Shown here piece after piece: positions 13,382 through 18,788 of a stretch of 64,000 bases of DNA. The stretch's first letter is position 1; each line of letters opens with the position of its first letter. This DNA comes from Parcubacteria group bacterium (GTDB lineage Bacteria > Patescibacteriota > Minisyncoccia > Phycocordibacterales > UBA2135), in the NCBI GenBank assembly GCA_016204045.1, contig JACQLQ010000001.1, forward strand, positions 21,515 to 85,514. The letters run 5' to 3'. A program made the position numbers and the translations under genes. The notes below the pieces were generated by a model. The model was given only the letters and a program-made list of their open reading frames with translations. It had not been told where the DNA came from and searched no databases.

Positions 13382-14176
13382 TTAGAACAAGCTATAGATG
13401 AGATAGGTGAGATATAGAGAAACCACGGTCAGGAGCAACACCCTAAGGTATTTCTCGGGCACCTTGCGGATGTGCCTGGTCATGAAGTTCGCACTGATAA
13501 ACGAGGCGACAAAAATCACGAGGAAATGGGGCCATGCGATGAGCCCGGAGAATGCCGTAACGACTGTTGAAAAGAGTGTTGGCGGCAACGCGATAAGACT
13601 TGCGAGACCAAGACCCTCAACGAAACTTATGCGAAGGATGCTTTGGTATGCAAACCGACTGAATGTCCCGACTCCGACACCACTCACGTTTCCGTACACC
13701 CCAAGTATAAACATCAGGGTAAAGATGAACGGGTAGTGTCTCATGCTAAGGTGTACATTCTCTACTGCTTGCATCTCTGCCTTCTTCCCAATCAACACAT
13801 ATATCAAGAGCACGGAGAGACCCAGTATCAAAACCGCTTTCAAAAACACAACAGGGATGTAGATGAGGAATGCTGTGCCGATGACCCCACCAACAAACAT
13901 GGGGAGGGCTAACATAAAGAGCAGTTTCTTGTTGCTCAGCACCTTCCGAGATGACGCGAGAACTATGCCTATATCTGCCCCTTGTGAGCCGCCGATGTCT
14001 GTCGCCACAACGACTGCGAGCGGCAATCCAATAGCCGCGAGTGTAAACTGTATAAGCACGCCCCCGCTTCCGACGATTGTTGCGTAACCCTCACCGATAA
14101 ACCCAGCGAGGAAACTTGCGAGTAAATGCCAGACTTCAAAATACGGCGGCAGAAGATGCAAGAGAAAATCGGGCAT
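13382..14176 (-). CDS. TSUP (TauE/SafE) family membrane transporter
   Basis: About 8 TM helices, 264 aa, and Gly-rich helices typical of TSUP. Confidence 0.5.
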   Translation of the reverse strand: MPDFLLHLLPPYFEVWHLLASFLAGFIGEGYATIVGSGGVLIQFTLAAIGLPLAVVVATDIGGSQGADIGIVLASSRKVLSNKKLLFMLALPMFVGGVIGTAFLIYIPVVFLKAVLILGLSVLLIYVLIGKKAEMQAVENVHLSMRHYPFIFTLMFILGVYGNVSGVGVGTFSRFAYQSILRISFVEGLGLASLIALPPTLFSTVVTAFSGLIAWPHFLVIFVASFISANFMTRHIRKVPEKYLRVLLLTVVSLYLTYLIYSLF

Positions 14177-14397: not shown

Positions 14398-14401
14398 ACG
14401 G

Positions 14402-14474
14402 TGCGCGGTGAGGGACTCGAACCCCCGACATCTTCAGTGTAAATGAAGCGCTCTACCAACTGAGCTAACCGCGC
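14402..14474 (-). tRNA. tRNA-Val(TAC): tRNA-Val (anticodon TAC)
   Basis: Manual fold: TAGCTCAGTTGGTAGAGC D arm, anticodon loop TTTACAC, T arm GGGGGTTCGAGTCCCTC. CCA is not fully encoded (CCG). Confidence 0.75.
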
Positions 14475-14485
14475 ATATTACTTTC

Positions 14486-14651
14486 GAGCTTAGACCTGCC
14501 AAAACAGCTAACTGCACATTATATCGAGCTTAGACCTGCCAAAACAGCTAACTGCACATTATATTGAGCTTAGATTTATCAAAACAGCTAACCGAGCATA
14601 TTACTTCCGAGCTTAGACCTGCCAAGACAACTAACCATCCTTGTCTCTAGC
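14486..14651. repeat. Four tandem ~40-43 bp repeats (gagcttagacctgccaaaacagctaactgcacattatat), each a degenerate copy of the tRNA-Val 5' third
   Basis: Units sit at 14486-14525, 14526-14565, 14566-14608 and 14609-14651. The unit tail ctgccaaaacagctaactgcacat resembles the tRNA-Val 5' region ctaccaactgagctaaccgcgcat. Confidence 0.7.
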
Positions 14652-14653
14652 TA

Positions 14654-14725
14654 TCCCCCCGGCAGGAATCGAACCTACATCAATGCCTTAGAAGAGCACT
14701 GCTCTATCCATTGAGCTACGGGGGG
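14654..14725 (-). tRNA. tRNA-Arg(TCT): tRNA-Arg (anticodon TCT)
   Basis: Manual fold: D arm TAGCTCAATGGATAGAGC, anticodon loop CTTCTAA, T arm GTAGGTTCGATTCCTGC, acceptor CCCCCCG/CGGGGGG. Confidence 0.7.
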
Positions 14726-14766
14726 TATCATACAACACGCACCGCGCATTGTACCTCGTTTCCGCT

Positions 14767-15102
14767 TTATTGTGAAGGATCGCTCATGCGCGGCGGCGGT
14801 GTCGTAAGGAGTTCCACAAGCGTTGCTTCTTTTGCTTTGTAAATCTCTTCGAGATCCCCGATATCTTCAATGCTGAGGGCGGTCTCTTCGCTCTCACTCA
14901 ACGCATGCGAGGCAAATACCTCTCCATCGGAAATCGCAATAAACAAATACACACCAACGCCCGCAGACAATATAAGAAGAACGAAAAGCCCAACAACAAG
15001 AAACATCCAGTCACGATACGGGGATGGTTCCGTTTTTGCGGAATCATAATCAAAAACCCCCTTAATGCGTTCGACGATATTTTTTGTGCTTAAGGTTTTC
15101 AT
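14767..15102 (-). CDS. Hypothetical single-TM protein, last gene of the pilMNO operon
   Basis: 111 aa with one TM helix, immediately downstream of the PilO-like gene. Confidence 0.35.
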   Translation of the reverse strand: MKTLSTKNIVERIKGVFDYDSAKTEPSPYRDWMFLVVGLFVLLILSAGVGVYLFIAISDGEVFASHALSESEETALSIEDIGDLEEIYKAKEATLVELLTTPPPRMSDPSQ

Positions 15103-18543: not shown

Positions 18544-18628
18544 GGAGGGGTGGCAGAGTGGTCTATTGCACTGGTCTTGAAAACCAGAGCACCGCAAGGT
18601 GCCGTGAGTTCGAATCTCACCCCCTCCG
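18544..18628 (+). tRNA. tRNA-Ser(TGA): tRNA-Ser (anticodon TGA), long variable arm
   Basis: Manual fold: acceptor GGAGGGG/CCCCTCC, anticodon loop CTTGAAA, variable arm GAGCACCGCAAGGTGCCGTG, T arm GAGTTCGAATCTC. Confidence 0.8.
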
Positions 18629-18652
18629 CAGATCGAACGCAGTGAGAGCTGC

Positions 18653-18788
18653 GGAGGGGGTGAATTGTGAAGGGGTCGGGAAACGGTAGTTTCCCGTGTA
18701 GGAGAGCAGTCCCGACTTGGGTCGGGACGTTGAGAACCGTGGGTTCTCAAGGAGGAGCGGGAGCGACGACGTCTCACTCCCCTCCGCC
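18653..18788 (+). other. tRNA-like structured element: acceptor-stem-like ends (GGAGGGGG ... CTCACTCCCCTCCGCC) bracketing three regular 7-8 bp tetraloop hairpins
   Basis: The 5' end repeats the tRNA-Ser 5' end, and the 3' end repeats the tRNA-Ser T-stem/acceptor 3' end. The hairpins lie at 18677-18696, 18709-18728 and 18732-18748. The tRNA 3' end also forms a 12-bp inverted repeat with 18649-18660. Confidence 0.4.

Follow-up and report, generated by a model that had tools for sequence, protein, structure and literature searches.

An array of tRNA-like units between tRNA-Arg and tRNA-Val

The stretch of DNA studied here, 64,000 nt long and referred to below as the window, is chromosomal DNA from a short-read metagenome-assembled genome (MAG) of the Parcubacteria group (Patescibacteria, or candidate phyla radiation, CPR). 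Our subject is a set of four short tandem repeats on its minus strand, named U4 to U1, that lie between two tRNA genes and resemble the 5′ end of the second. Read in the direction of transcription, the locus runs from tRNA-Arg(TCT) (14654–14725, minus strand; ARAGORN, and Rfam RF00005 at 68 bits) through a 13-nt junction, read directly as TAGCTAGAGACAA (14641–14653), to U4, U3, U2 and U1, which follow one another head to tail from 14640 to 14475, and then to tRNA-Val(TAC) (14400–14474, minus strand; ARAGORN, and Rfam at 72.4 bits). The spacer from tRNA-Arg to tRNA-Val measures 179 nt, and within this region ARAGORN and Rfam (E up to 10) called only the two flanking tRNAs.

Each unit is built from a copy of the acceptor 5′ strand together with T8–T12, a 17-nt box derived from the D arm (TAGCTGTYTTGGYAGGT, positions 8–24), and an A/U-rich tail, 9–22 nt long across the family, that ends in U. 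All four units lie on the minus strand. U4 (43 nt, 14598–14640) reads GGATGGT, TAGTTGTCTTGGCAGGT, CTAAGCTCGGAAGTAATAT and has its box at 14633–14617, with one mismatch to the family core, while U3 (40 nt, 14558–14597) reads GCTCGGT, TAGCTGTTTTGATAAAT, CTAAGCTCAATATAAT and has a decayed box at 14590–14574, with three mismatches to the degenerate consensus (G19A, G22A and G23A). The family core is exact in U2 (40 nt, 14518–14557; GTGCAGT, TAGCTGTTTTGGCAGGT, CTAAGCTCGATATAAT; core at 14550–14534) and in U1 (43 nt, 14475–14517; GTGCAGT, TAGCTGTTTTGGCAGGT, CTAAGCTCGAAAGTAATAT; core at 14510–14494). The tails of these four units are 16–19 nt long, A/T-rich and end in AAT or TAT. tRNA-Val, which starts GCGCGGT-TAGCTCAGTTGGTAGAGC, begins at the base right after U1, its first 12 nt (the acceptor 5′ strand plus TTAGC-T) staying in repeat phase, and the tail of U1 is its immediate 5′ leader. 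Tandem Repeats Finder reported the region as a single array (14484–14635; period 40, 3.7 copies, 82% matches, score 200).

The units were compared with the first 22 nt of tRNA-Val, ungapped and in register, where U4 matches at 14/22 positions and U3, U2 and U1 at 16/22 each. Among 20,000 shuffles of the spacer, a single match of at least 16/22 arose in 12 and four phased matches arose in none; the rest of the 64-kb window, searched on both strands, holds no match of at least 16/22 and one of 15/22. Likewise, the unit core pattern occurs four times in the window against 0.02 expected. The similarity to tRNA-Val spans ∼22 nt, with unit positions 23–34 matching at 2/12, which is chance level, and the units are closer to one another than to tRNA-Val, U1 being identical to U2 over 34 nt. 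The tandem array of tRNA-Val 5′-fragment copies proposed in the original prediction is therefore real, since four in-phase units match at 14–16/22, beyond what shuffling yields. Its unit size of ∼40–43 bp (43, 40, 40 and 43 nt), its ATAT-containing linker (the linkers are A/T-rich and end in ...AAT or ...ATAT) and its derivation of the units from a tRNA, which the phased match to the 5′ end of tRNA-Val bears out, also hold, and of the copied length, put at the first ∼24 nt, the likeness to the 5′ end stands with an extent of ∼22 nt rather than 24. Two of the checks that it proposed gave positive answers: alignment to tRNA-Val showed similarity better than chance in the 20,000 shuffles, and a related genome has the same locus with three units instead of four, such that copy number varies.

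The box is an altered D arm

The box differs from the true D arm at five sites: C13G, A14T, G15Y, A23G and G24T. In the RNA, C13G, A23G and G24U abolish the D stem, and A14U and G15Y remove bases that make tertiary contacts, with U8, G10–U12 and U16–G22 retained. Among degenerate members of arrays the least variable stretch comprises positions 12–22 (TGTYTTGGYAG), and positions 8, 11 and 23 vary most. The same five differences are found at dozens of unrelated tRNA loci, and for this reason the view of the units as random decay products of tRNA-Val did not survive.

Folding offers no sign of structure in these units. The spacer, on both strands, and the single units fold no better than shuffled sequences (z-scores of +0.4 to +1.6), RNAalifold left the unit wholly unpaired, and no Rfam family matched even at E = 10; a structured RNA was rejected on these grounds. 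A 4-bp mini-hairpin (C11–G22 to U14–G19) is likewise unsupported, C11 being among the most variable positions. The box thus appears to be a G/U-rich, C-poor, single-stranded leader element under purifying selection.

An orthologous array in a related genome

Parcubacteria NC_groundwater_1209 has a locus, L086, that shares synteny with the window along 8 kb at 69–75% nucleotide identity and has the order tRNA-Arg, three units, tRNA-Val. The units align one to one, with U4 orthologous to unit a, U2 to unit b and U1 to unit c, while U3 is extra in the window and is without an orthologue. Summed over the three orthologous unit pairs, 49/51 positions agree in the 17-nt box and 13/21 in the 7-nt acceptor copy. 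Set against a background of 72%, 49/51 has a binomial P of ∼1e-5, where the coding DNA that supplies the background stands in conservatively for neutral sequence. Over the first 10 bases of the linker the two complete pairs agree at 8/10, and the linker ends cannot be aligned between the two genomes, save for the retained AAT|G junctions. Unit orthology together with the box identity indicates that the array is old, that it has been inherited unit by unit, and that the box evolves much more slowly than its surroundings. The diverged acceptor form GTGCAG is also common to the window and L086, indicating that the divergence of the acceptor copies here is old.

The family across tRNA genes

One genome per GTDB species was scanned with the body of tRNA-Val(TAC) only, which gave 120 loci, nearly all of them from Patescibacteria. 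In five of the 120, one to three units, all with the same altered box TAGCTGTYTTGGYAGGT, immediately precede tRNA-Val in the same orientation, and the exact core occurs nowhere else in the 878 kb. A second scan, of metagenomes, sought the box followed 15–45 nt later by another box or by a true D arm and returned at least 120 matches; the array counts that follow refer to the matches listed. Every resolvable array among them sits directly upstream of a tRNA on the same strand, and the four units in the window share these traits, being in phase, on the same strand and directly upstream of a tRNA with the D arm TAGCTCAGTTGGTAGAGC. The arrays precede tRNA-Val(TAC) in 30 cases, Thr(GGT) in 15, Thr(CGT) in 13, Val(GAC) in 12, Lys(TTT) in 11, Phe(GAA) in 11, Lys(CTT) in 10 and Thr(TGT) in 6, with a few more before Asn, Ile, Met and Val(CAC), and in all they stand before at least 95 distinct tRNA sequences of 13 anticodon classes. 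The other matches are arrays cut at contig ends or tRNA-Thr genes with an insertion in the anticodon loop. The metagenome contigs carry no taxon labels.

Copy number ranges from 1 to 10 in tandem, the largest array being ten 38-nt units before tRNA-Phe (L154), near-identical loci differ in copy number, and unit length peaks at 37–41 nt. In 107/182 units the opening 7 nt are identical to those of the local tRNA, and the acceptor copy agrees with the local tRNA at a mean of 5.98/7, compared to 2.89 ± 0.11 when tRNAs are shuffled among loci; in the window the agreement is 5/7 for U1 and U2, 6/7 for U3 and 4/7 for U4. Diverged acceptor copies lose C preferentially, with 0.285 changes per C site versus 0.099 per G site, and C>T changes outnumber G>A by 41 to 16 (P = 3e-4). 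The local D arm is not the source of the box, in that tRNAs with a CAGCTGG D loop are still preceded by GTTTTGG units, and across the family the tails resemble the body of their own tRNA no more than they do other tRNAs. Tail classes are conserved within a tRNA family (ATACAAT... for Thr(TGT), AACG... for Val(GAC) and AACAGTAAAATAC for Lys(TTT)), which points to vertical inheritance within each. A metagenome scan with a pattern that included the linker start TCTAAGCTC found no match, and this linker start is private to the lineage of the window. Tail ends are A-rich, with U at −1 at a frequency of 0.68 and A at −2 at 0.56; a leader end of this kind, A-rich with U at −1, is the composition favoured by bacterial ribonuclease P (RNase P). 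Rfam 15 has no family that matches the array or its units, even at E = 10, and a literature search found no description of such elements. The units are thus apparently a widespread and undescribed family of short tandem elements upstream of many Patescibacteria tRNA genes, to which we refer as class 1.

Transcription and origin of the units

A promoter-like site, TTCACA-17-TACAAT, lies upstream of tRNA-Arg at 14748–14776 on the minus strand (10/12 matches in a consensus scan), and it has a conserved counterpart, TTCACA-17-TATAAT, upstream of tRNA-Arg in L086. A terminator-like site was sought between the window site and tRNA-Val, and none was found. With a promoter-like site before tRNA-Arg, its conservation in L086 and no terminator-like site after it, the array would be the inter-tRNA spacer of an Arg-Val precursor, and the site at 14748–14776 is, from its sequence and position, likely to be the start of the Arg-array-Val transcript. 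Elsewhere, a good promoter-like site is present upstream of 21/112 distinct arrays. In these 21 arrays the distance between the −10 box and +1 of the first unit peaks at 8–9 nt versus 8–11 nt for plain tRNAs, and because this gap equals that of plain tRNAs, the unit would form the very 5′ end of the primary transcript in those arrays. As a side observation on plain tRNA genes, promoter-like −10 boxes stand only 8–11 nt before tRNA +1 both in the window and at loci L017–L136, so that primary leaders without units would be only ∼1–4 nt long.

The arrangement of the units bears on how they arose. At two loci (L161 and L141) the sequence just before the first unit duplicates the linker's end, which is the signature of a tandem duplication that spanned the leader and tRNA positions 1 to ∼24. 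Relatives without units keep a promoter, TTGACC-17-TAATTT, 8–23 nt from tRNA-Val, and at L104 two units lie between such a TTGACC-17-TAATTT promoter and tRNA-Val. Duplication across the boundary between leader and tRNA 5′ end would explain why, at every locus seen, the fragments are upstream and the intact gene comes last.

These observations can be assembled into a mechanism, each step of which is conditional. Units would form and multiply whenever tandem duplication or unequal recombination spans the junction of leader and tRNA 5′ end, with the intact gene staying downstream. They would be transcribed within the Arg-Val precursor here, and as the 5′ end of the primary transcript elsewhere, and an RNase P cut at tRNA +1 would remove the whole leader. 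Selection would keep the box for an action in cis on the precursor, on the transcribing polymerase or on the non-template DNA, the likeliest mode being that the box serves as an unstructured G/U-rich, C-poor site for a putative trans-acting factor of the processing, pausing or antitermination type. The acceptor copy would be mainly a by-product of this origin that decays with age, here retaining 4–6 of 7 positions.

Identities tried and rejected

The neighbours of the array are housekeeping genes (L19, an RluD-type pseudouridine synthase, UppS, acylphosphatase, a PilM-cluster and RuvX), with a TauE gene also nearby, whose product is 100% identical to an NCBI protein from a Parcubacteria group MAG; downstream of the array come tRNA-Val, a 72-aa YgjV-like open reading frame (ORF) and then TauE. 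The original prediction had held that the array is not one of clustered regularly interspaced short palindromic repeats (CRISPR), and we agree, as the units run head to tail without spacers and Pfam and PADLOC scans of the neighbours found no cas or defence genes. Its suggestion of repeated site-specific recombination found no support, given that no integrase or recombinase lies within ∼6 kb, that the fragments are 5′ rather than 3′, and that no element body separates the copies. Its suggestion of a decayed tRNA gene array found none either, because the units lack an anticodon arm, a T arm and a 3′ acceptor strand and their tails are not closer to their own tRNA. Finally, its idea of a tRNA-derived regulatory or small-RNA locus survives in general form only, the box being conserved across species and before many tRNA genes.

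Other candidates were tried and set aside. An integrase attachment (att) remnant does not fit fragments that consist of the 5′ 12–22 nt, nor the neighbouring genes listed above, and an association with phages was dismissed when all 17 bare-core matches in IMG/VR fell in unrelated sequence away from tRNAs. The repeat size would suit a type III toxin-antitoxin array, but no ToxN/AbiQ-type toxin gene follows and PADLOC gave no match. Repeats of the tyrT type with an rtT RNA were discarded because here the repeats precede the tRNA and contain its 5′ end, and no rtT match was obtained in Rfam. A sigma-70 promoter in each unit was discarded too: U1 and U4 reach 9/12 with a 16-nt spacer and a −10 element abutting +1, and the spacing in the family is mostly 10–14 nt. 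The idea that a unit is a whole tRNA with an internal deletion, its D loop fused to the variable loop and T arm, fits one tRNA-Lys locus and leaves no family-wide signal. Peptide coding is at odds with unit lengths that are not multiples of three, and an ATG-NNN-NNN-TAG mini-ORF across the junctions, with AGGT as its Shine-Dalgarno sequence, is not universal and has poor spacing. Sigma-54 −24/−12 elements have inconsistent spacing, and the ops/RfaH-like and NusG TTNTTT pause motifs bear a loose resemblance only.

Weighing the interpretations

The interpretation we lean towards, with a little more belief than doubt, is that the locus is a four-copy array of class-1 tRNA 5′-mimic leader units, made by tandem duplication, that contains a selected cis-acting box. 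On sequence grounds the box appears to be selected because it is conserved across species and recurs before many tRNA genes; unbiased support for its conservation comes from the comparison with L086, which is one species pair, and from the 120 tRNA-Val loci. Several points weigh against this interpretation. Transcription together with tRNA-Val and removal by RNase P are steps that we infer. The boxes of U3 and U4 are decaying here, so not all copies are maintained, and the invariance of the box at the family level is partly imposed by search patterns that required the core. The loss of C from the acceptor copies could stem from selection that favours U-G pairs with the 3′ strand of the tRNA, making the acceptor copy functional, and could equally be attributed to transcription-associated deamination. 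Lastly, the presence of the same five substitutions before a dozen tRNA families lacks an explanation: independent convergence, which would need strong selection for the exact site, seems unlikely, and transfer between tRNA loci would need a mechanism, of which none was found.

The units could instead be neutral junk, in which slippage or unequal crossing-over duplicated the leader and tRNA 5′ end and left functionless, decaying pseudo-fragments. The signatures of tandem duplication, the variation in copy number and the decay of U3 and U4 are what such a process would leave, partial self-copies of tRNA ends are common in these genomes (5′ upstream in 15/441 and 3′ downstream in 25/441), and other 5′ copies exist that are not class 1. 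Neutral decay does not, however, account for an identical 17-mer with five D-arm differences before at least 95 distinct tRNAs of 13 anticodon classes, for a box that is 49/51 identical next to an acceptor copy at 13/21 and coding DNA at 69–75%, or for three of four units that are individually orthologous, such that the array is old and yet has not been erased; we regard this account as rather unlikely. It is also unlikely, and a shade more so, that the acceptor copy is the functional part, competing for the 3′ acceptor strand of the tRNA so that alternative helices delay folding or add RNase P sites at unit boundaries and release ∼40-nt RNAs. The 7/7 identity in 107/182 units speaks for this, as do minimum free energy (MFE) structures of unit plus tRNA that pair the copy with the tRNA 3′ strand in 44/64 cases, an RNase P-like ...A-U|G context at every junction, distal ones included and even across species, and a C>T excess that preserves U-G pairing. 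The copy nonetheless evolves near the neutral rate in the sole orthologous pair (13/21), there are large perfect arrays with badly mismatched copies (at L256, GTGAGAG versus GCGCGAT), only 15/48 diverged copies still pair fully, C is lost to A and G as well, and the MFE models ignore tRNA tertiary structure.

A further possibility, which we consider quite improbable, is that the box acts like BoxA in loading NusB/NusE, part of a Nus-factor antitermination or RNA-chaperone complex, and was recruited into tRNA leaders. The Aquifex rrn BoxA is GGCUCCUUGGCA, of which NusB/NusE read 8 nt (PMC3177189), and the gamma-proteobacterial BoxA consensus is GYTCTTTAANA (PMC5725501). AGCUGUYUUGGYA matches 6/8 octamer positions ungapped ((G/U)GCUC(U/C)UU versus AGCUGUYU); the C15/C20 variant of window U4 and of L086 shares CUUGGCA with Aquifex, the box is unstructured and single-stranded, and a leader position suits BoxA biology. 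As in rrn and lambda BoxA, there would be a short single-stranded leader box in a stable-RNA transcript, with a partial match in sequence (GCU.UYUU and CUUGGCA). Here, though, the conserved C at octamer position 5 is replaced by G, unless a 1-nt insertion is allowed, the most constrained positions, 12–22, run past the octamer to give a longer constrained region, and the box is repeated in tandem and linked to a tRNA acceptor copy. No rRNA operon lies in the window or in the 256 loci, and a literature search found no link of BoxA to tRNA operon leaders. We think it very unlikely that the units are tandem promoters, each with a −35-like TTGGYA and a −10-like end box, that multiply the transcription of a single-copy tRNA gene. 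TTGGCA-16-TAATAT does occur in U4 and U1 (9/12), the box resembles an extended −35 (TCTTGGCA versus TCTTGACA) and several linkers end in TATAAT or TAATAT; against this, the −10-like hexamer directly adjoins either the following unit or tRNA +1, which would place initiation ∼7 nt inside the acceptor stem, the unit-length mode of 37–41 leaves a 10–14-nt spacer so that ∼7% of units permit 16–18 nt, linkers range in length from 9 to at least 22 nt, and canonical promoters stand upstream of whole arrays. Scarcely probable at all, in our judgement, are scars or att sites left behind when a mobile element integrated into the tRNA D loop, restored the gene and added one unit per cycle. Such an element would explain the local first 12 nt followed by a common remainder, and the restriction to tRNAs that share one D-arm sequence; linker classes are specific to tRNA families, and tRNA genes here do carry insertions, namely D-loop inserts in a second leader class and 3′-end elements, both described below. 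It is contradicted by the lack of any integrase, transposase or defence gene found within ∼6 kb, by the lack of any locus where an element body parts the fragment from the tRNA (the ‘far’ cases being tRNAs that contain introns), by a duplicated leader of 9 to 23 nt that is unlike a fixed target duplication, by core matches on viral contigs that are due to chance, and by stable inheritance of the array unit by unit.

Comparison with known systems

The array resembles a known kind of locus, tandem repeats with a terminal tRNA fragment, but adds a conserved box and breadth across tRNA families. The 178-bp repeats at E. coli tyrT and their rtT RNA (Egan and Landy 1978; Bosl and Kersten 1991) are reportedly tandem repeats with a tRNA fragment that are co-transcribed, processed out and ascribed to unequal recombination. 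Both systems place tandem repeats next to a tRNA gene with a terminal fragment of that tRNA in each, while the tyrT repeats carry the 3′ end, lie downstream, are 178 bp long, are confined to a single locus in a single lineage and lack a box common to tRNA families. ToxI-like type III antitoxin arrays are spacer-less tandem repeats of ∼36–40 nt that are transcribed and cut into units; in contrast, no toxin gene is present here and the array is always followed by the tRNA whose 5′ end it copies. In animal mitochondrial spacers, tandem duplication across a tRNA boundary is reported to leave partial copies in variable number beside the intact gene (PMC5370444). The mitochondrial copies decay neutrally and are lineage-specific, unlike the altered D-arm box, which is conserved across species and tRNA families. 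Integrases of prophages and integrative elements leave duplications of tRNA 3′ fragments (PMC9897764), and they too produce a partial tRNA copy beside an intact gene; theirs is a 3′ copy with a kb-scale, integrase-bearing element in between, whereas the copies here are 5′, contiguous and tandem, with no integrase.

Other elements that flank tRNA genes

Of 441 tRNAs surveyed at the unbiased loci, 15 have 9 nt of their own 5′ end repeated exactly in the 250 nt upstream and none has such a copy downstream, and a copy of the 3′ end lies downstream of 25 and upstream of 2, so that self-copies of tRNA ends are frequent in these genomes. Other leaders that mimic their own 5′ end, with an acceptor copy plus a hairpin or a D-loop insert, precede Gly, Arg, Leu, Pro, Cys and Phe tRNAs, and at tRNA-Val(TAC) loci class-1 units make up about half of the self-mimic leaders (5/11). 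A second class of self-mimic leader was seen at L093 (∼150 nt upstream of tRNA-Val) and at L057, L101 and L105 (tRNA-Pro). Its order is a near-perfect copy of the acceptor and D-arm 5′ half, a structured D-loop insert (∼40 nt in L101; 85–100 nt in L093, L057 and L105), the D-arm 3′ half, a linker and the intact tRNA. In L017, L061, L074, L126, L135, L136, L184 and others, the leader opens with an exact copy of at least 9 nt of the own 5′ end and continues with a hairpin instead of a D arm. These hairpin-type leaders, tandem or single, precede Val, Arg, Phe and Gly tRNAs, and some pair the acceptor copy with a complementary strand.

At the 3′ side, a highly structured element of ∼160 nt (MFE −73.5 kcal/mol) lies in the window at 18630–18787 on the plus strand, downstream of tRNA-Ser(TGA) (18544–18629). 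It opens with an antisense copy of the tRNA 3′ end, GCGGAGGGGGTGA (18651–18663), and closes with a sense copy, TCTCACTCCCCTCCGC (18772–18787; one mismatch), and the two copies form a closing helix. The same architecture follows 25/441 tRNAs (His, Leu, Arg, Val, Phe, Ser and Gly) at Patescibacteria loci, with the shared motifs GAAAGCCGGAGC, GCGAGGCGGGGTCGCGA and GTGACC. The element matched no Rfam family, and it overlaps spurious minus-strand ORFs. Separately, the tRNA-Thr(GGT) genes at L185, L230 and L157 have a long insertion right after CATTGGT in the anticodon loop that is probably an intron and was missed by ARAGORN. Such insertions fit published CPR group I introns in tRNAs, and the study that reports these introns also describes diverged CPR RNase P RNAs (PMC8172020).

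Next to the array, the TauE/SafE gene (13382–14176, minus strand) adjoins tRNA-Val and is missing from the otherwise syntenic L086. Its homologues in related MAGs (70–75% identical) lie in unrelated neighbourhoods, three of them directly downstream of another tRNA (Leu-GAG, Ile-TAT and Glu-CTC), which suggests a gene that relocates beside tRNA genes; a genome scan for synteny through the neighbouring TauE gene found no syntenic locus. Two Logan contigs (L001 and L002), independent short-read assemblies of the same species, end inside tRNA-Val and tRNA-Arg on either side of the array. The array or the tRNAs break assemblies, and the count of four copies here comes from the short-read MAG only.

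Implications

CPR bacteria have tiny genomes with one gene per tRNA, and to our knowledge they offer no genetic system and the control of their tRNA supply is not known. In this setting we put forward, tentatively and as a possibility that we rate below even, that class-1 units are a new, Patescibacteria-specific class of cis-acting pre-tRNA leader, in which a linearised D-arm box read by a dedicated factor, along with an acceptor mimic, would control how single-copy tRNA genes are transcribed, or how their transcripts fold or are processed by RNase P. The class would renew itself by tandem duplication from the regulated gene and may be one of a wider, so far unrecognised set of self-derived CPR tRNA-flanking elements that includes the hairpin-type 5′ mimics, the D-loop-insert leaders and the 3′ elements with an antisense copy, structured core and sense copy. 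Since the arrays break short-read contigs, they also matter in practice, and their 5′ fragments may be mistaken for tRNA pseudogenes or integration scars. The family poses an evolutionary puzzle, with one five-substitution derivative of the D arm standing before a dozen tRNA families and each copy bearing the local acceptor sequence. As a conserved, easily recognised element that is absent from Rfam and tied to many tRNA leaders, it would provide a handle for metatranscriptomics, for RNase P and Nus-factor biochemistry and for phylogenetic profiling.

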